Shown here piece by piece: positions 3,859-42,401 of a DNA stretch of 44,723 bases (position 1 is its first letter; every line of letters starts with the position of its first letter). The notes beneath the pieces were generated by a model. The model did no database searches. It saw only the letters and a program-made list of their open reading frames with translations, and was not told the origin of the DNA. Both the position numbers and the translations under genes were made by a program. The DNA comes from Escherichia phage vB_EcoS_fFiEco02. Location of the stretch: the sequence record NC_073316.1, one strand, 5' to 3'.

Positions 3859-3916
3859 AGTATATCTAGTAGCTAGCTTTGGTCGGTGAACTACTAAAAA
3901 TAGAGAAAGAATATAA

Positions 3917-3971
3917 CCCCATGAAGGTATGCCTATCTCTGGCATCGACCAATCTTCATGGGGTTTTCTTA
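3917..3971 (+). terminator. rho-independent terminator (long hairpin + T-tract)
   Basis: 10-bp stem ccccatgaag/cttcatgggg with internal atgcc/ggcat pairing, followed by ttttctta. Confidence 0.5.
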
Positions 3972-5686: not shown

Positions 5687-5715
5687 TTGACTTTTCACTG
5701 AAAATATGATAAGCT
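5687..5715 (+). promoter_or_regulatory. promoter TTGACT-N17-TAAGCT of structured RNA A
   Basis: near-identical to 37525-37553 (TTGACTTTT.ACT.AAAATATG.TAAGCT); palindrome CTATTCGAATAG directly upstream. Confidence 0.5.
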
Positions 5716-5721
5716 CCACCT

Positions 5722-5918
5722 GAGCTTGTGAAGTATGAACAAGCGACCGCGGCGCGGGCAGGTAACGGAGCGGGACGTAAGTCCTGAGTGTAGTTACGCT
5801 GACGCGTTCGGAAGGGCCATACTCTATTGCTTGTGTAAAAAGTAACTGGTTTACTGAGATTACGCCGTTTCTATGTTTAAATGATAAGGACTAGCGCCCC
5901 GCTTTAAGGCGGGGCTTT
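5722..5918 (+). ncRNA. structured RNA element A (paralog of 37560-37794); candidate cis-acting antiterminator-like RNA or small RNA
   Basis: about 110 nt core conserved with copy B; stems GCTTGT/ACAAGC, CAG-GTAAC/GTTAC-g-CTG and GGAC-GTAA-GTCC show compensatory changes relative to B; ends at hairpin gccccgc-tttaag-gcggggc + ttt; the only ORF inside is not conserved in B. Confidence 0.5.
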
Positions 5919-12826: not shown

Positions 12827-12933
12827 CTTGTGGTATAAGAAGAGTAAAGGATAGCTTTAGCGGGCGAAAAAGAGAGGGGTCGTGCCCTCTCTTTCCTTTA
12901 TACGGTAAATACACGAGCCTGACGAGGTGAATA

Positions 12934-15560: not shown

Positions 15561-15589
15561 AATAGTACCCTATTATATTGGGGTGTGCA
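15561..15589 (-). promoter_or_regulatory. sigma70-type promoter TTGCAC-N17-TACTAT with GAATAG-N4-CTATTC palindrome
   Basis: 26-bp identity with the promoter at 5592-5620; drives the - strand island. Confidence 0.6.
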
Positions 15590-15697
15590 AGTAGTGTGCT
15601 AGAATAAGTTTGCGCCTAGTGTCGCACACGAAAAGCGGGTGGTTCCCGTCTGGCGCGTCAACCTTAACCTGTAACCTCTTAACCAAAGGATTAAAGA

Positions 15698-26297: not shown

Positions 26298-27724
26298 TTC
26301 TTACTCCTACGTTTCATATAATTAAGTAGTTCATCCTGTACAGACCTTTTCTCGTCTGTACGCGCGGCGACAACTTCATCAAGAGTATCTCGGGCTATTA
26401 TTTGATAAATGAATACAGACCGTTTGTACCCAGACTGCATCTGCCTTACCGGACCTATGCGCTCGATAACCTGCAGATAATGCTCCAGGTTCCACCCCTG
26501 ACTCATAAAGGCCATGTGGTGTCCGCCGTGTTGTAGTGACAGCCCGTGACCCGCGGAGGCTGGGTGTATCAGGAGCATAGGTATCTCGCCGCGGTTCCAC
26601 GCTTCCATCTGCTTAGTACCCTTAGCGCCTTTGGCAAACGCCTGTGCCTGTGGGAAACGTTTCAGGATGCGCTCCAGTTCGTGCTTGAACTGATAGGCGA
26701 CCAGTAGTGGTGCGCCCTGTAACTCCTCAACAATTGACTCAAGCGCATCCAGTTTCGTGTCGTGCACTTTCTCCCAGTCTTTCGTTGCTTCTCCGTCCGG
26801 CCCTGACACATATACGGCACCAGATGCGATCTGCAAGCACTTCGACGTCTTCGCCGCGGCGTTAGCCGCTTCAACTTCCCCACTTTCCAGTTCTGCGAAT
26901 AGCTTCTCCTCCATATCTATGTACGCCTGACGCGCTTTCTTCGGCAGGTCAATTTCCACCGGCACGATAATAGGTGCTTCACAACCAAACCACTCGGCGG
27001 CGTCAATCGTCAGGCTGATGTCTTTCATCTTCTGGTGAATTTCATTATCCGCACCAGGGCGAGCGTGGTATTCTCGCGCCATAGCCGATTTGCCTTTCTG
27101 TACCGAGTTGAACCAGCGGTCGGTGAATGCCGTGTACGATGAGCCGAGGCGCTCGCCCGCGTCGATAAACCAGTTCTGGCCCCACAAGTCTTTGAGGCCG
27201 TTAGGTGATGGCGTTCCCGTCAGGTTTATAAAACGCTTGACCTTACCGAACGCAACCTTGCTAAGCGCCTTTGCCCGCTTGCTGCCGCCTGAACGACTGC
27301 GGAATGATTTCAGTTTCGTGCTCTCATCGGCAACGATAACCGTAAAAGGCCAGTCGTCTTTGCCGTAGTAGTCAATCAGCCACTCGATAACTTCGTAGTT
27401 GGTGCATACCACGTTAGCGTCCGACTCCAGCGCCGCGATGCGACGCCTCTCGCTACCGGTCGCATCGACGACACTCAGACAAGGGAAACCCCACTTAGTT
27501 TGTTCTGCGGGCCACGTACCGGATGCAACACGTAACGGGGCGAGGATTAACACGCGGTCCTCTTCCGTAAGCTGCCCGTTGCGGAACAGGCGGTTTAGAA
27601 CCCACATCGTTGCGGAACTTTTGCCCGCGCCCATCGAGGCCCAAATATTACAGCGCGGGTGTTGCAGCATGAACGAAGTCATGAGCTTCTGGTACTCTCG
27701 ACGGATAAATTTAGACATAATCAA
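26294..27724 (-). CDS. SNF2/DEAD-like helicase
   Basis: Walker A MGAGKS, DExx box VADESTKLK, helicase C-terminal block (LIHPASAGHGLSLQ). Confidence 0.75.
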   Translation of the reverse strand: MIMSKFIRREYQKLMTSFMLQHPRCNIWASMGAGKSSATMWVLNRLFRNGQLTEEDRVLILAPLRVASGTWPAEQTKWGFPCLSVVDATGSERRRIAALESDANVVCTNYEVIEWLIDYYGKDDWPFTVIVADESTKLKSFRSRSGGSKRAKALSKVAFGKVKRFINLTGTPSPNGLKDLWGQNWFIDAGERLGSSYTAFTDRWFNSVQKGKSAMAREYHARPGADNEIHQKMKDISLTIDAAEWFGCEAPIIVPVEIDLPKKARQAYIDMEEKLFAELESGEVEAANAAAKTSKCLQIASGAVYVSGPDGEATKDWEKVHDTKLDALESIVEELQGAPLLVAYQFKHELERILKRFPQAQAFAKGAKGTKQMEAWNRGEIPMLLIHPASAGHGLSLQHGGHHMAFMSQGWNLEHYLQVIERIGPVRQMQSGYKRSVFIYQIIARDTLDEVVAARTDEKRSVQDELLNYMKRRSKK

Positions 27725-27915
27725 CCCTTAACGTAGAGTACCAATTCCTTCCGCCCAAACGCCGTAACGTTACCGGTTACGTCTTCGATAACCAGTTTAC
27801 CGTTCGACTCGACGAACACCGTATCAACGGCAACAGGGCGACGGGTCTTAACGTTGAAAATCATGTCGCCCGGTACGATGTCACGTGCTGGTTTGCGGTC
27901 ATATTCGTGTTTCAT
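27721..27915 (-). CDS. hypothetical small protein
   Basis: 64 aa; overlaps the helicase start. Confidence 0.4.
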   Translation of the reverse strand: MKHEYDRKPARDIVPGDMIFNVKTRRPVAVDTVFVESNGKLVIEDVTGNVTAFGRKELVLYVKG

Positions 27916-34621: not shown

Positions 34622-36889
34622 CTATTCCAAATCTTCCTCTGTCGCTACCAGCATTTCATTCGGTTCGTATATTGTCTTCGGAATCTTGTTATCCGTTATC
34701 CTGGTGTTCAGCCTGTAACGGCCGGGTATTATCTGATTGTTTTCGTCAGTACCCGGAACAAGATACCCGGCCTCAACCATTTTCTTAATCTTCCCGCGTT
34801 CTATAGCTTCTTTGGAGTTAAACGCCTTTGCGTTGGGGTCGGACTGTGCCAGCTTATTCGCTGCGGCTACTGTGATACCTTCGTTTCCGTTGTAGGTTCC
34901 TTCCGCCAGTTCAAACGCTGCCAGTATCGTGGCTTCTGAGCTGTTGACGGCGTTCTCTACGGTTTTACGTACGTTTTCTTTACCTTCCTTAGTCAGCCCT
35001 TCTTCCCGCTCTTTCTCCTCGTCAGTTTTGAACGGCTCGAAACCCCACGGCATTAACACAAGCGCTTTGTGCGGCTCCGGCAGGTCCAGGTTTACGATTG
35101 TGCCGTATTCCTCTGTGTTACCCAGGAACTCAACCGCACGGTATTCTTTCGGCGGCGGCGCTTCACGGAACTGTACAGACTCCAGCACCATACCAACCGT
35201 CTTCTGTTGAGGTCCGTGCTTAAATTTAGAGTGGTATACATTTATCTGACGGTCGGTTGCGCGTTCAATTGTCAGTTCCACATCGACGCCTGCGTACAGC
35301 GCGCCACTGCCACGGGCTTTCTTTCCACCCTTCGGGGTATGGTGGACGACGCCTACCGCGGCTTTAGTTGTGTCGCGTACTTCTTTCATGATTGCGATAA
35401 CTTTACCCATACCGATTGCCGTTGATGAACTGTTCTCGTCGAACTTATCGATCGTCAGGGCCAGCGTCTGGTTGAGGGTGTCAAACGCAACCATGCCAAT
35501 AGGTTCATCCCCCGCAGTTTCACGCATCAACTTAATCAGGTTTTTCAGTTTGCCGACTTCACCCACGTCGATGACATGTACATAATCTTTACCTTCTTCG
35601 CCGTATTTAGCCGCAAGGGCATCGATACGTGTACGTGTAGCCGCACCACCTTCACCATCAATATAGAAGTGATGGCAACGCTGGGTATCCGCCCCGGCAA
35701 ACCGGTATCCGGAGGCACTCAGGTACATCATACCCAGTGTATAGAACGATTTATACGTGCCGGATTCCCCGACAATATCCCAGATGCAATCCGACGGCAT
35801 GTACCCTTCAACGACGAAATCAGCCTTTACCGGTTCCGGTAGCTCATCCTCTTCTGAGTCCTCGTCGCCCTCCAGGTCGTCCAGGCTGCATGAAACTGAT
35901 TCACGCGCACCCCAACCGATAGCCTCAGCCACTTTACTGAACGGCAGCCCGGTCGCATCACACACATACTTCCACACCTCTTTTGGTGGCATGCCTTCGG
36001 TTGCCGTAATGTCGGTGTCGTGAATCATGGTTACGTTAGGTGCTTCGTACCCCTCGCGCGGGAAGCACAGCAGGAAGTCATCCGGCCGCGGCGTCGGGTC
36101 GCTGTAGTTCTCTGCGTGTTCCGGCGTAGCTGGCATTTTCAGGCCGCGCGGCGTCATGATACCGCCGTACTCAAACGCCAGTGCTTCAAACGCATCAGTA
36201 AACGCGGTGCGCAGTTCTTCCGGTATCTGGTAATCCGATGCGCTGCTCACCTCGTAATCCGGTATGCCTTCCAGTAACTCATCCGGGTCAATCAGGTCGT
36301 TGCGGCGCGACCAGATAACAGTAGAGCCAACCGGCGGCAGGTACATCGGCTGAGACAGAGTGAACCCGCTGCGGTCCGCGCCCATACCTTTGAAGAAGTG
36401 CTCCAGCAATCCATGACGGACGCGGACGATGTCACCACCTTCAACCGGACGAGCCAGCGGCATGACAACACGAAAGCGCGGCGACTCATCAATATGTGAC
36501 GCCGTGGTATAGAGGCACATGGCTTTACGGCTGCGCTTAACCCGGTGCACCGCTTCCTGGTACTCTTCCGGCGTTGCACTGTCGAAGTCCAGATACGCCA
36601 GCGACGATTTGCTTACAGACGCGTCACAGCGATAAAAGAAGCCTTTACGGGCCTGCTTAAAGTCACCTGTTTCCGGGTCTTTTACGGTGCTGTGTATAGA
36701 ATCGCACGCGGCAGTGATATAACCTGGCGCGGTCTTAGGGTTAATCCCGTCGCGAACAGCATCAAGCGGCTGAATTAACTCTTTCAGGTCATCCAGTGTT
36801 GCCGTATGTGTGGTTCTGACGTTTATATCCTTTTTCTCCGCCCGCGCGTTGCGACGGGACCACGAGTAGGATAAAATTACATCGGACAT
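34622..36889 (-). CDS. primase-helicase (N-terminal primase-like domain, C-terminal RecA/DnaB-like P-loop domain)
   Basis: 755 aa; Walker A GESGTYKS, Walker B-like VAFDTLN; SD aaggaaa. Confidence 0.8.
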   Translation of the reverse strand: MSDVILSYSWSRRNARAEKKDINVRTTHTATLDDLKELIQPLDAVRDGINPKTAPGYITAACDSIHSTVKDPETGDFKQARKGFFYRCDASVSKSSLAYLDFDSATPEEYQEAVHRVKRSRKAMCLYTTASHIDESPRFRVVMPLARPVEGGDIVRVRHGLLEHFFKGMGADRSGFTLSQPMYLPPVGSTVIWSRRNDLIDPDELLEGIPDYEVSSASDYQIPEELRTAFTDAFEALAFEYGGIMTPRGLKMPATPEHAENYSDPTPRPDDFLLCFPREGYEAPNVTMIHDTDITATEGMPPKEVWKYVCDATGLPFSKVAEAIGWGARESVSCSLDDLEGDEDSEEDELPEPVKADFVVEGYMPSDCIWDIVGESGTYKSFYTLGMMYLSASGYRFAGADTQRCHHFYIDGEGGAATRTRIDALAAKYGEEGKDYVHVIDVGEVGKLKNLIKLMRETAGDEPIGMVAFDTLNQTLALTIDKFDENSSSTAIGMGKVIAIMKEVRDTTKAAVGVVHHTPKGGKKARGSGALYAGVDVELTIERATDRQINVYHSKFKHGPQQKTVGMVLESVQFREAPPPKEYRAVEFLGNTEEYGTIVNLDLPEPHKALVLMPWGFEPFKTDEEKEREEGLTKEGKENVRKTVENAVNSSEATILAAFELAEGTYNGNEGITVAAANKLAQSDPNAKAFNSKEAIERGKIKKMVEAGYLVPGTDENNQIIPGRYRLNTRITDNKIPKTIYEPNEMLVATEEDLE

Positions 36890-37524: not shown

Positions 37525-37553
37525 TTGACTTTTACTTAAAAATATGCTAAGCT
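37525..37553 (+). promoter_or_regulatory. promoter TTGACT-N17-TAAGCT of structured RNA B
   Basis: paralog of 5687-5715. Confidence 0.5.
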
Positions 37554-37559
37554 TCACTG

Positions 37560-37794
37560 AGCTTGTGAGATATCGCAAGCGACCGCGGAGCGGCAGGGAA
37601 CGCAACGCGTGCCATTAGGCACTTGAGTGTAGTTCCGCTGGCGCTTTCGGAAGGGCCAAAGTCTATTGTTAATCCCGCCTAAATACCCAAGTCACTGATA
37701 ATTAAAAGTTTATATAGTTGCCGTAAGCAAGGTAGAGAGTACTTCACTCCGCTGGGGTGGGCTAACGCCCACCCACTGCGTTGCGTACTCTTTT
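37560..37794 (+). ncRNA. structured RNA element B (paralog of 5722-5918)
   Basis: conserved core; stems GCTTG/CAAGC, CAG-GGAAC/GTTCC-g-CTG, GTGCC-ATTA-GGCAC; ends in a long hairpin + tctttt. Confidence 0.5.
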
Positions 37795-37833: not shown

Positions 37834-37862
37834 TTGCACACCCCAACATAATAGGATACTAT
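37834..37862 (+). promoter_or_regulatory. early promoter TTGCAC-N17-TACTAT with AATAG-N4-CTATTC palindrome
   Basis: consensus-like hexamers; conserved leader …ATCGAAACGAGA… shared with 39344 and 42424 promoters. Confidence 0.6.
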
Positions 37863-37896: not shown

Positions 37897-38085
37897 ATGT
37901 TTAGGAAGGGTCAGTTGGTTAAAGCCGTAGATTATTATTATAGTATTGTTGAAACAGAGTCTGTCGTTTTTCCCGGAACTTATAGGGTGCGTTTTCTCGT
38001 GAAAAGATTAGGTGCGGTAGATTGGTTCCGGGAAGACGAGCTAACACTCATCGGCAACAATTTTAAATTCAAAGGGGCGAAGTGA
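37897..38085 (+). CDS. hypothetical early protein
   Basis: 62 aa from the ATG at 37897. Confidence 0.4.
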   Translation: MFRKGQLVKAVDYYYSIVETESVVFPGTYRVRFLVKRLGAVDWFREDELTLIGNNFKFKGAK

Positions 38086-39343: not shown

Positions 39344-39372
39344 TTGCACACTGGGATAGAATAGGCTACTAT
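39344..39372 (+). promoter_or_regulatory. early promoter TTGCAC-N17-TACTAT with GAATAG-N4-CTATTC palindrome
   Basis: palindrome 39359-39374; leader contains ACGAGAGGAGAG. Confidence 0.6.
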
Positions 39373-39592: not shown

Positions 39593-40239
39593 GTAACAAA
39601 AACGAAGTATTCGAGTACCTGATTGACCAGTTACGGCGGCAGCTACCGGTCGTAGATGTTATGGGTGAGATTGAACGGTGGAGTATCGACCGTAGTATCG
39701 CGGGTCGCGGTAACTATACCGACGAGGAAAACGCCATAATCGATGCTTACATCGGCCTGGAGCACAACCCGTACAAGCAACAGTGCGAAGGCCTGGCCCA
39801 TGAAGTGCTGTCACTTAAGAATCAGTTACGTGATGCGTCGGCGCTGGTGGCTGAGTTACAGAAAGAACTTGATATCGCCAATAGCACCGTCGTTCGTTTG
39901 CGTAAAGAGATAGCTAAGTCTACCGGTGACATTGGAGAATACATCGATGCCATGGAGCAATCCGGTTGCTGCAAAGAAGATACTCAGTACAACGCCTGGA
40001 GGCCGCATTATGGTGCGCGACAACCTGTGCCGGATGGGACTATGGTATTTATCCGGTATCGCAACGGGGAGGAGCCGAAACACAGTGTAGCAGCAGAAAA
40101 GCGGTCGTGGATTTGGGATGGAACATACGCAGACATAGTGGAATACAAGATTGACACACAGGAATGTGAACATGACTATCGTTTGGTTCTGTGGTGTAAC
40201 GACTTACAGCAGTGCTCTAAATGCGGGGTGATCAAATGA
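39589..40239 (+). CDS. hypothetical early protein (coiled-coil N-terminal, Cys/Trp-rich C-terminal)
   Basis: 216 aa; ATGA overlap with the upstream gene. Confidence 0.5.
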   Translation: MSNKNEVFEYLIDQLRRQLPVVDVMGEIERWSIDRSIAGRGNYTDEENAIIDAYIGLEHNPYKQQCEGLAHEVLSLKNQLRDASALVAELQKELDIANSTVVRLRKEIAKSTGDIGEYIDAMEQSGCCKEDTQYNAWRPHYGARQPVPDGTMVFIRYRNGEEPKHSVAAEKRSWIWDGTYADIVEYKIDTQECEHDYRLVLWCNDLQQCSKCGVIK

Positions 40240-40499
40240 CCAGCATCTTATTTATCTGGGTATTGTCCGCAGGCCAGATGCAACTAGCGGCATCAGAAAC
40301 GTTTTATTCGATGGAGGCGTGCCAGTCAGCGGCACGCGCCGCAGAGAACGCGCACTTTCTGTTTCAGGGTGACAAGCCCAACGACTCAGAGGTACGCGCC
40401 GCAGAGAACGCGCACTTTCTGTTTCAGGGTGACAAGCCCAACGACTCAGAGGTACGCGCTATCTGCTCGCCTAAGCGACTTGGTAAACAGGAGAAGTGA
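40236..40499 (+). CDS. small protein with N-terminal hydrophobic segment and internal 20-aa tandem duplication
   Basis: MTSILFIWVLSAGQMQLAAS…; AAENAHFLFQGDKPNDSEVR repeated twice. Confidence 0.45.
   Translation: MTSILFIWVLSAGQMQLAASETFYSMEACQSAARAAENAHFLFQGDKPNDSEVRAAENAHFLFQGDKPNDSEVRAICSPKRLGKQEK
40334..40453 (+). repeat. perfect 60-bp tandem duplication (2 copies, plus 7-bp partial third)
   Basis: acgcgccgcagagaacgcgcactttctgtttcagggtgacaagcccaacgactcagaggt repeated head-to-tail. Confidence 0.9.
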
Positions 40500-40705: not shown

Positions 40706-40899
40706 TGGTACAGAGGTATGAGGTGGAAAAATGGGGCCTGCCAGAGCCTGAGATGGCTGAGTACGCATACGGCGATTATGTAGAATACGACGCTTATCTT
40801 AAACTGGAAGCAAAGTTACGTGAATTCGCTGAACAGGTAATGTACGAACCTTGTTCGAAAGTTACAGAAGAAATGGCCCGCGAGATTCTCGGAATATGA
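40705..40899 (+). CDS. hypothetical early protein (MVQRY paralog 2)
   Basis: 64 aa; same N-terminus MVQRY and similar helical YxxYLKLE pattern. Confidence 0.45.
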   Translation: MVQRYEVEKWGLPEPEMAEYAYGDYVEYDAYLKLEAKLREFAEQVMYEPCSKVTEEMAREILGI

Positions 40900-41189
40900 G
40901 CCTTGCAACTGACATCCTGAAACGAAGCGGCCTTGCGCCGCTGTCGCCGAGAGCGAATACACGAATACACAAGCGCCGCCGTAACGCGCTGTTCCCTGAG
41001 ATACAAGAACGGCGCAAAGCCATCCGCGCCTGCGGATTCCAGAGCGGGAAGGCCGTTAATCTAGGCGAGTTTAAGACGAAGGAACGCGCAGCAATCGCTA
41101 ATCGGTTATTTAATTACTGGAAATCGCTGGGATATGATGATATTCCGACGAAACCGCAGAGACGACAATACATCTGGAGACATAAATAA
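40896..41189 (+). CDS. hypothetical basic protein
   Basis: 97 aa from the ATG at 40896 (ATGA overlap); Arg/Lys-rich. Confidence 0.4.
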   Translation: MSLATDILKRSGLAPLSPRANTRIHKRRRNALFPEIQERRKAIRACGFQSGKAVNLGEFKTKERAAIANRLFNYWKSLGYDDIPTKPQRRQYIWRHK

Positions 41190-41219
41190 ACCGTTATTAA
41201 GATAATTCCTACCCGTGGT

Positions 41220-41259
41220 ATCCTCCAGTTACTGCATACTTAATACGCACCTGGAGGAT
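41220..41259 (+). promoter_or_regulatory. stem-loop sequestering the holin ribosome-binding site
   Basis: 9-bp stem atcctccag/ctggaggat; SD ggagga lies in the 3' arm, 6 nt upstream of the TTG start. Confidence 0.4.
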
Positions 41260-41264
41260 TCATC

Positions 41265-41573
41265 TTGGATAAATTTACCGAAACAGTGACGGGGTGGCTT
41301 CTCGCTGCCGCACTAGCCGGAGGGGTAATTGGACTACGACAGCATAAGTCCGTTATTTCTGACCCTATCGACGGCTTCTGCTTTATCGCAACTGGCTTCA
41401 CTTGCGCCGTGTTTGGCGCACCTCTTGCCGCCCAATGGTTTGGCATTACCGGTGAGCGTGAGATAGCTGGCCTCGGATTCATCATTGCCATTCTCTGGAT
41501 ACCCATCTATTCCCGCCTATCCGGTATCGTCGCCGGAGAATACATCGCACGTCGAGGAGGCACAGATGAATGA
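41265..41573 (+). CDS. holin (putative, three transmembrane segments, TTG start)
   Basis: 102 aa with three hydrophobic segments; no in-frame ATG/Met; immediately upstream of second membrane protein and endolysin. Confidence 0.5.
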   Translation: MDKFTETVTGWLLAAALAGGVIGLRQHKSVISDPIDGFCFIATGFTCAVFGAPLAAQWFGITGEREIAGLGFIIAILWIPIYSRLSGIVAGEYIARRGGTDE

Positions 41574-41838
41574 GTTATTCTGGTTCGGTGGTATGCTGGC
41601 AATCGGAGGCGCATCGCTGTTTAATGTGTATCACCCCCGCGTGGACGACGGACTATTTGGCCGGGTGCTCTATATCCTGACAGCTATCGTCTGCGCAGCC
41701 GGGTGTATCCACCTGTTACAGGGCAGCATGTCGCCAACGCTGCCCGAGACGTTAATCACATTAGTTGCGCTGCGCCAGATTCGCCAGGCGTGGCTGTCAT
41801 ACGGAGGACATAAGCGTGTCTCGAAACATTTCAGATAA
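41566..41838 (+). CDS. second small membrane protein (holin/antiholin candidate)
   Basis: 90 aa from the ATG at 41566 with SD gaggagg; two hydrophobic segments. Confidence 0.45.
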   Translation: MNELFWFGGMLAIGGASLFNVYHPRVDDGLFGRVLYILTAIVCAAGCIHLLQGSMSPTLPETLITLVALRQIRQAWLSYGGHKRVSKHFR

Positions 41839-42304
41839 TGGATTGCATTTTACCGCTGCGTTCGAGGGGTTCCGTGGAACTGCATATCGTGCTACGCCGA
41901 ATGAGAAGTACCTGACTATTGGGTACGGTCACTATGGGCCGGACGTAACACCAGGTAAGACCATCACCCCTGGCCAAGGCCTCCTGTTACTGAATCGCGA
42001 TATGGCTAAGGCCGTAGCTGCGGTTGATGCAGCAGCACACCATTCGCTGACACAGGCGCAGTTCGACGCCGTGTGTGACCTGGTCTATAACGCCGGTGCA
42101 GGTGTGGTTGCAGCTACTACTGGCACGGGTAAGGCGCTGCGTTCCGGTGATGTCGCGACGCTACGGGCTAAACTGGCGCTGTTTATCAACCAGAACGGCA
42201 AACCGCTACTCGGCTTGCGTCGCCGTACTGCGGGCCGTCTGGCCCTGTTCGACGGCAAACCGTGGCAGGAGGCAGAGGCTATCGGGCGCGCGGTGAAAGG
42301 TTGA
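41816..42304 (+). CDS. endolysin, T4-lysozyme-like (GH24) muramidase
   Basis: motif EGFRGTAYRATPNEKYLTIGYGH matches the E-G-x-R…Y…T-I-G-x-G-H catalytic region; GTG start with SD ggagga overlapping the upstream gene. Confidence 0.8.
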   Translation: MSRNISDNGLHFTAAFEGFRGTAYRATPNEKYLTIGYGHYGPDVTPGKTITPGQGLLLLNRDMAKAVAAVDAAAHHSLTQAQFDAVCDLVYNAGAGVVAATTGTGKALRSGDVATLRAKLALFINQNGKPLLGLRRRTAGRLALFDGKPWQEAEAIGRAVKG

Positions 42305-42370
42305 CACCTGAGACTAATCCGACGATACTTAAATCACCTCCTGTTCCATCCCTCTGCTCTCCAGTTTTAT

Positions 42371-42401
42371 CCCGGCCCTGACCCAGCCGGGATTTTTTTT
42401 T
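42371..42401 (+). terminator. strong rho-independent terminator after the lysis cassette
   Basis: hairpin cccggc-cctgaccca-gccggg followed by nine T. Confidence 0.7.

Follow-up and report, generated by a model that had tools for sequence, protein, structure and literature searches.

A selected RNA hairpin over the holin Shine-Dalgarno sequence and a promoter-like motif in fixed register with it in Kagunavirus and related phages

The holin gene of Escherichia phage vB_EcoS_fFiEco02 (NC_073316.1; its 44,723 nucleotides, all of which were analysed, are called the window below) is preceded by a hairpin whose 3' arm contains the Shine-Dalgarno (SD) sequence. Folding and the comparison of related phages established a predicted occlusion of this SD, selection on the hairpin as RNA of the + strand, and a promoter-like motif in a fixed register over the 5' arm. 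We propose that the hairpin locks the SD on RNA reading through from upstream genes, and that a promoter embedded in the hairpin makes an open holin mRNA. We give this proposal about even chances.

The holin start and its hairpin

The window is the genome of a siphophage of the genus Kagunavirus (subfamily Guernseyvirinae). Positions 40800-42400 (1.6 kb) are ~92% identical to Escherichia phage vB_EcoS_fFiEco03. The holin is the first gene of the lysis cassette, which lies on the + strand amid a run of small genes. The leader and the cassette contain the following features:

41216-41224, + strand: TGgTATCCT, an extended -10 promoter-like motif (TG at -15/-14, hexamer TATCCT at 41219-41224) that overlaps the 5' arm
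41220-41228, + strand: 5' arm of the hairpin (anti-SD), ATCCTCCAG, from sequence and folding
41229-41250, + strand: 22-nt hairpin loop between the two arms
41251-41259, + strand: 3' arm of the hairpin, CTGGAGGAT, with the SD GGAGGA (41253-41258) inside, from sequence and folding
41260-41267, + strand: U-rich spacer TCATC and TTG start codon (41265-41267)
41265-41573, + strand: holin gene, 102 aa, with three hydrophobic segments by hydropathy (PHROG 2359 'holin', E=1.3e-28)
41566-41838, + strand: second holin/antiholin-like gene, with ATG start (PHROG 2508 holin, E=3.2e-33)
41816-42304, + strand: endolysin gene, with GTG start and SD GGAGGA (PF00959 Phage_lysozyme, E=4.7e-27)

The first-pass annotation of this DNA had described the holin frame as lacking methionine codons and TTG at 41265 as its only plausible start. 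The translation of 41265-41573 confirmed that no in-frame Met codon is present, and the upstream stop, homology and the annotation of relatives agree that TTG 41265 is the only credible start. Further upstream, the frame is closed by a stop at 41241-41243 before any ATG, GTG or TTG could serve as a start, and the only alternative in-frame start, GTG 41286 (codon 8), is without an SD and lies in a segment that is absent from Dhillonvirus homologs. Furthermore, the N-terminus M-D-K aligns with the ATG-initiated M-D-K of Dhillonvirus holins, which are 44-47% identical, and the GenBank annotation of close relatives uses the same TTG. All Kagunavirus loci start with TTG, as does L102, a metagenomic intermediate lineage. 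Dhillonvirus holins start with ATG and Jerseyvirus holins with GTG or ATG. Hence, the weak start is not universal, since Dhillonvirus and one Jerseyvirus group use ATG. Translational coupling and a leader ORF were both rejected; the upstream stop (41187-41189) lies 31 nt before the 5' arm, and the intervening frame is without ATG, GTG or TTG.

A strong GGAGG(A) SD is present on all three lysis genes. The second holin-like gene begins with an ATG that overlaps the holin stop codon (ATGAATGA, 41566-41573), and has an accessible SD of its own, with an unpaired probability of 0.61. The endolysin start in turn overlaps the end of the second holin-like gene (41803-41838), and no N-terminal hydrophobic segment was visible in the endolysin translation. 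In the L102 lineage, the endolysin directly follows the holin. That the second holin-like gene is missing there suggests that the first gene is the essential holin.

The two hairpin arms are 100% complementary and form a perfect 9-bp stem with six G-C pairs. A check against the sequence found the coordinates, the stem and the position of the SD within the 3' arm to be as originally described. The spacer between GGAGGA and TTG 41265 is 6 nt. The folding energy of the leader had been named as a check on the occlusion, and the calculation agreed with it: the hairpin alone is predicted at -14.2 kcal/mol, and the SD is unpaired with a probability of 0.002 in any RNA containing the 5' arm, versus 0.40 in an RNA starting at 41231. 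The predicted cost of opening the SD is 12.6 kcal/mol with the 5' arm and 5.4 kcal/mol without it. Among 63 heuristically called gene starts in the window, the holin SD ranks second in occlusion. The most occluded SD in the window belongs to a start at 37897 on the + strand (unpaired probability 0.00), just 3' of the promoter at 37834, and this start is a heuristic and uncertain call.

The window contains 12 perfect 9-bp inverted repeats with 3-40 nt loops, versus 6.8±3.0 in Markov simulations, and the repeat by itself is within chance. Moreover, the whole 111-nt region folds no better than shuffled sequences (z=-0.83). What lies beyond chance is the placement of the repeat exactly on the holin SD, the occlusion rank of this SD, the near-invariance of the leader and the covariation of the stem. 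A search of Rfam, RNA thermometers included, gave no match in 41190-41300 at E<=1. The other short-loop, perfect inverted repeats of at least 9 bp are located at 3915-3968, 12869-12894, 27436-27467, 27690-27743 and 34720-34772, and may be terminators or chance occurrences.

Conservation and covariation of the leader

The homologous leader was recovered from ~150 loci and four further lineages. Five lineages were distinguished, which carry the following leaders:

Kagunavirus (window): TGgTATCCTCCAG-22 nt-CTGGAGGATtcatcTTG
L102: TGgTATCCTCTGGTCGT-7 nt-GTGGCTGGAGGATttattTTG
Dhillonvirus (EP23, SO-1 and others): TGaTATAGTCCCAGTGAG-6 nt-CTTACTGGGACttttttATG
Jerseyvirus group 1 (Jersey, SETP3-like): TG(c/t)TAATCTCCGAA...TTCGGAGATTttttattGTG
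Jerseyvirus group 2: TG(a/c)TAA(T/C)CTCCGTA...TACGGAGtcctctcaccgATG

The L102 holin is 65% identical to that of the window, and the Jersey protein is remotely homologous (22% identity, E=2e-7). No such leader precedes the more distantly related holin L100 (33% identity), which indicates that the module is confined to these phage groups.

Variability was measured over 40 distinct Kagunavirus sequences. Mean heterozygosity was 0.021 in the leader (41214-41264), 0.343 at third codon positions of the holin and 0.056 at first and second positions. The leader is thus ~16-fold less variable than the adjacent third codon positions. Only one of the nine columns of the 5' arm varied among the 40 variants, by an A to G change that keeps a G·U pair. 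The loop is conserved inside Kagunavirus, and the loops of the other lineages are unrelated in sequence and in length (6-22 nt).

In every lineage the SD, in the form of GGAGGA, GGAGA, GGAG or GGGA, lies inside the 3' arm, and the start codon follows at 5-11 nt. The inner stems differ and are still complementary (CCAG/CTGG, CUGG/CUGG with wobble, CCCAGUGAG/CUUACUGGG, CCGAA/UUCGG and CCGUA/UACGG). A count of covariation found 86% of the cells paired, versus 65% in shuffles and 30-49% in controls with a slid partner; in this count the 5' side was anchored on the promoter-like motif. Both sides change in 8 of the 12 pairs, and the 35 compensatory cells were matched by none of 500 shuffles. The 3' register was picked to maximise pairing and the lineages are related, both of which bias these numbers in favour of the structure.

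Individual variants are informative as well. The A to G change in the 5' arm with its retained G·U pair is found in the L041 group; in L030, six changes in the 'loop' extend the stem to 14 bp; in Dhillonviruses of the L103 type, an extra C in the 5' arm is matched by an A to G change in the 3' arm; and L102 has a 13-bp stem with four G·U pairs. One isolate (L140) carries a change on the complementary side that results in an A·C mismatch. The aligned leaders demonstrate selection on an RNA helix in the + strand sense transcript. The many G·U pairs and the variation in arm spacing of 6-22 nt argue for an RNA helix rather than a DNA palindrome recognised by a protein.

The promoter-like motif and neighbouring transcription signals

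The bases TG, T-12, A-11 and T-7 of the motif are invariant in all five lineages, whereas the 'n' and positions -10 to -8 vary, although four conserved bases give weak statistics in lineages that share ancestry. The variants are TGgTATCCT, TGcTATCCT, TGaTATAGT, TGaTATAAT, TGc/tTAATCT, TGaTAATCT and TGcTAACCT. The bases upstream of TG also vary between lineages, and the 'n' at 41218 (g/c) is the only common polymorphism of the leader in Kagunavirus (heterozygosity 0.49). TGnTAnnnT stands in a fixed register, immediately over or against the 5' arm, in all five lineages. If the hexamer is taken as -12 to -7, every lineage has its anti-SD core (CTCC/TCCC) near -8 to -4 and the end of its 5' arm somewhere from -3 to +3 (in the window, this arm spans -11 to -3). 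A purine is found 7-8 nt past the hexamer in every lineage, with A41231 at the predicted +1 in the window.

Conservation of positions -12 to -9 persists in Dhillonvirus and Jerseyvirus group 2, where these positions are not part of the helix, and in L106-108 an outer stem pair has been sacrificed for a perfect TGaTATAAT. Most of the hexamer can also be accounted for by pairing with the SD region in Kagunavirus and Jerseyvirus group 1, where TG and T-12 alone are left over. The pattern of constraint matches that expected of an extended -10 promoter. As a -10 hexamer, TATCCT is poor, and no -35 element was recognisable. Two candidates for a repeated phage-specific promoter motif were rejected, as neither was enriched in the window (TGNTATCCT, 31 matches versus 24±5 expected; CGTGNTAT, 6 matches versus 6.2 expected). 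Since these motifs were not enriched and TGnTAnnnT-like strings are common by chance, with 84 in the window, the argument for a promoter is solely one of positional conservation.

Two other promoter candidates near the holin were also rejected. The loop contains TACTTAAT, and the loops of L102, Dhillonvirus and Jerseyvirus are unrelated to it in sequence and length. Upstream lies GAGACA-18-GATAAT (41177-41206), of which the -35 is lost where a different gene is located upstream and the GATAAT is destroyed in L102.

The small genes around the cassette appear to be driven by predicted sigma-70-type promoters, for example TTGCAC-17-TACTAT at 37834 and 39344. The signals that flank the cassette are:

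39344-39372, + strand: predicted sigma-70-type promoter TTGCAC-17-TACTAT, one of three near-identical copies
42369-42401, + strand: strong intrinsic terminator ATCCCGGC...GCCGGGAT followed by T9, 3' of the lysis cassette and conserved in relatives

Transcripts reading into the holin leader probably originate from the promoter at 39344, and a terminator scan found no convincing terminator between this promoter and 41220. The three near-identical elements, each of 29 nt with the sequence TTGCACAC...TAGG(A/G/C)TACTAT, are located at 15562-15590 (- strand), 37834-37862 (+ strand) and 39344-39372 (+ strand). The paper on a relative lists such 29-nt elements as promoters for a 'phage-encoded RNA polymerase' (PMC9825357). 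Their sigma-70 -35/-10 layout with a 17-nt spacer makes it more likely that they are strong host-polymerase promoters.

Several other noncoding and repeated elements were observed in the window. Directly after the endolysin stop lies a sigma-70-like promoter, TTGACA-17-GATACT, with the terminator ~65 nt further on (42301-42401, + strand). The predicted short RNA is pyrimidine-rich and contains the anti-SD-like motifs CACCUCCUG, CAUCCCUCU and CUCUCCAG. This promoter-terminator unit is kept in Kagunavirus loci, in Jersey and in L102 (e.g., L158 42223-42321 and L102 2314-2432), and its terminator stem shows compensatory changes in one locus. In Rfam, the RNA gave weak sub-threshold matches alone (RF02278 toxic sRNA, 25 bits, E=0.11). 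We consider the unit a candidate phage small RNA or leader. An action of this RNA in trans on the holin SD was rejected, since the predicted duplex (-21.4) does not go beyond shuffles (-16.7±3.7) and no covariation with the hairpin arms was found in Jersey or L102.

Furthermore, 5687-5835 and 37526-37672 (both + strand) are paralogous copies that are 81% identical over ~165 nt. In each, ~130 nt of G+C-rich noncoding sequence lie behind the promoter TTGACT-17-TAAGCT. One copy is located in the structural-gene region and the other in the early control region. The pair looks like a duplicated noncoding RNA gene, and had no Rfam match at E<=1. Finally, a 60-nt tandem duplication (2.2 copies, 97% match) at 40326-40459 on the + strand lies inside ORF 40236-40499 and encodes a repeated 20-aa block, AAENAHFLFQGDKPNDSEVR.

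Possible mechanisms and comparison with known systems

On the proposed mechanism, RNA that reads through from an upstream, likely early-type promoter (39344) would carry both arms, fold the 9-bp stem and hide GGAGGA, so that the holin would be essentially untranslatable from it. RNA polymerase bound at TGgTATCCT would start at ~41231 (41230-41232), within the loop and past the 5' arm. The resulting transcript would have a 34-nt A/U-rich leader that lacks the lock and exposes the strong SD. Holin synthesis would thereby be uncoupled from upstream early transcription and would depend on a weak promoter without a -35 element, which is possibly activator- or gene-dosage-dependent. The TTG start would lower the initiation rate further, and together these features would delay the rise of the holin to its triggering concentration. 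We infer the read-through, the promoter activity and its start site, the temporal behaviour and the effect on lysis timing from the arrangement of these signals. A point against the mechanism is that an always-active sigma-70 promoter would not alone give late timing. The literature on these genera yielded no usable transcriptome or start-site data.

The first-pass annotation had read the hairpin and the TTG start as a plausible translational throttle on lysis timing. The occluded ribosome binding site and the weak start in the window are indeed real, conserved and selected, and lend good inferential support to a lowered translation of the holin. On this reading there would be no internal promoter, all holin mRNA would be read-through RNA with the hairpin, and rare breathing of the stem together with the weak TTG would keep holin production low and constant and so set the lysis time. 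Each lineage has at least one weakening feature (TTG, GTG, a weak GGGA SD or an 11-nt spacing from SD to start), and the SDs of the second holin-like gene and the endolysin are open, so that the dangerous gene alone is damped. In lambda, moreover, a stem-loop controls access to the SD and the holin translation rate sets the lysis time (10.1101/2025.05.14.654169). However, the comparative data point beyond a constant throttle, and the throttle reading is supported in part. An unpaired probability of 0.002 and an opening cost of 12.6 kcal/mol would permit almost no translation, and a terminator-like hairpin, as in Dhillonvirus, would block the endolysin too. Such a throttle also leaves unexplained the invariant TG-n-TA...T register, which persists even outside the helix, and the stem pair that L106 traded for a perfect TATAAT. 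In view of the motif over the 5' arm, the terminator-like sister hairpins and a weak start that is not universal, a constant throttle appears too simple; it is a possible reading of the leader, and on the whole a rather unlikely one.

The sister hairpins raise the alternative that termination or attenuation is the main role of the element, which would shield the lysis cassette from the upstream operon, with SD occlusion as an incidental effect; expression would then need read-through or a phage antiterminator similar to lambda Q at tR'. The hairpins of Dhillonvirus (L042; 12 pairs, loop of 6, tail TTTTTATG) and L102 (13 pairs, loop of 7, tail TTATTTTG) were flagged as terminator-like, the Jersey tail is U-rich (TTTTATTG), and the tail in the window, UUCAUCUU, is moderately so. 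The U-tract is U6 in Dhillonvirus and UUAUUUU in L102; in the window (UCAUCUUG), the eight bases after the stem contain 4-5 U, depending on where the stem ends. The window hairpin has an adequate stem, but its 22-nt loop is longer than the 3-8 nt typical of intrinsic terminators, and it was not flagged in the terminator scan. In Jerseyvirus group 2 a U-tract is absent (tail TCCTCTCACCG), and the SD-containing stem is kept nevertheless. These two observations imply that SD sequestration, and not termination, is the conserved function. No Q-like protein was found either; the upstream ORF has no Pfam match and is replaced by another gene in many Kagunaviruses. We consider termination as the main role improbable, and note that in Dhillonvirus, L102 and Jersey some termination of read-through RNA may occur in addition. 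The perfect 9-bp repeat, which flanks the promoter-like motif, together with the helix-turn-helix regulators in the early region of the window (by homology with fBC-Eco01), could instead suggest a DNA operator that overlaps the holin promoter and is bound by a dimeric regulator of the phage. Yet substitutions preserve RNA pairing through G·U while breaking DNA symmetry, the L102 arms match as DNA at only 9 of 13 positions, the arm spacing ranges from 6 to 22 nt between lineages, and the window has no other exact copy of the half-site, which makes an operator very improbable. That the repeat is a functionless product of chance, of which ~7 are expected per window and with which the fold z-score of -0.83 would agree, is hardly credible given the near-invariant leader, the compensatory changes over five lineages and the exact overlap with the SD.

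In Dhillonvirus the terminator-like hairpin abuts the ATG, so the lysis genes would need an internal promoter or read-through of the terminator, a point in favour of the proposed mechanism. The lock with an embedded promoter can be extended to the other lineages: the same ~10 bases may serve as a -10 element in DNA, as an anti-SD arm in RNA and, in some lineages, as the upstream half of a terminator, and would thereby make the lysis cassette self-insulated. This wider reading is tentative, and we put it slightly below an even chance. If true, transcripts from outside would be locked or terminated, and the holin would be expressed solely from transcripts born inside the hairpin. The module is conserved in register across Kagunavirus, Jerseyvirus and Dhillonvirus, with a stem that co-evolves with the SD of each lineage.

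How long a phage infection lasts is determined by the expression of the holin. Phages of the genera Kagunavirus, Jerseyvirus and Dhillonvirus are often isolated for therapeutic use against E. coli and Salmonella. The lock and embedded promoter, if true, would explain how lysis genes can sit safely in an early-looking gene cluster. Stem strength, a change of TTG to ATG, and mutations of the TG and -10 elements offer handles for the engineering of lysis time. If the simple throttle alone holds, the finding is an ordinary one. We found no mention of the hairpin in the GenBank features of relatives or in the Kagunavirus genome papers, and the record of one relative annotates predicted promoters and terminators, none of which lies in the holin leader. 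The principle is known, and what appears to be undescribed is this instance, with a locked holin, a host-type promoter logic and a distribution over three genera.

The E. coli promoter galP1 (TGcTATGGT) is an extended -10 promoter. The motif in the window resembles it in the TG one base before a T-A-T-x-x-T hexamer and in the lack of a recognisable -35 element, and differs in that its putative hexamer also encodes the anti-SD arm of the hairpin in the RNA. Lambda tR' is an intrinsic terminator before the lysis cassette that is subject to antitermination by Q. The U-tailed hairpins immediately before the lysis genes of Dhillonvirus, L102 and Jersey are similarly placed. In contrast, the window hairpin combines a loop of 22 nt with a poor U-tract, and the search for a Q-like antiterminator was negative.

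In the lambda S gene, a stem-loop (sdi) overlaps the SD and limits ribosome access, and the rate of holin translation sets the lysis time (10.1101/2025.05.14.654169). A stem-loop over the holin SD is likewise predicted in the window. The lambda structure partitions initiation between two in-frame AUGs (Met1 for the antiholin and Met3 for the holin), whereas the window has a single TTG, a much more stable, perfect 9-bp stem and a separate second holin-like gene. A dual start of the lambda type was rejected for the window, where the GTG at codon 8 is the only other in-frame start and has no SD.

In T4 gene e, early read-through RNA sequesters the ribosome binding site, and the late promoters are embedded in the DNA from which the 5' strand of the helix is transcribed; the same control operates in T4 soc, gene 49 and I-TevI (PMC3014915). 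The window shares with gene e a lysis gene located 3' of earlier units, a predicted SD-sequestering helix and a promoter-like motif over the 5' strand. It differs in that T4 locks the endolysin (lysozyme) whereas the window would lock the holin, and in that T4 uses the gp55 late promoter TATAAATA whereas the motif in the window is predicted to be of the host sigma-70 extended -10 type, TGnTAnnnT. Moreover, the start codon in the window is TTG, and the hairpin of sister lineages is also terminator-like. If the proposed mechanism is true, this conserved and compact lock-and-promoter module of the holin would be a host-sigma-70 analogue of the control of T4 gene e.
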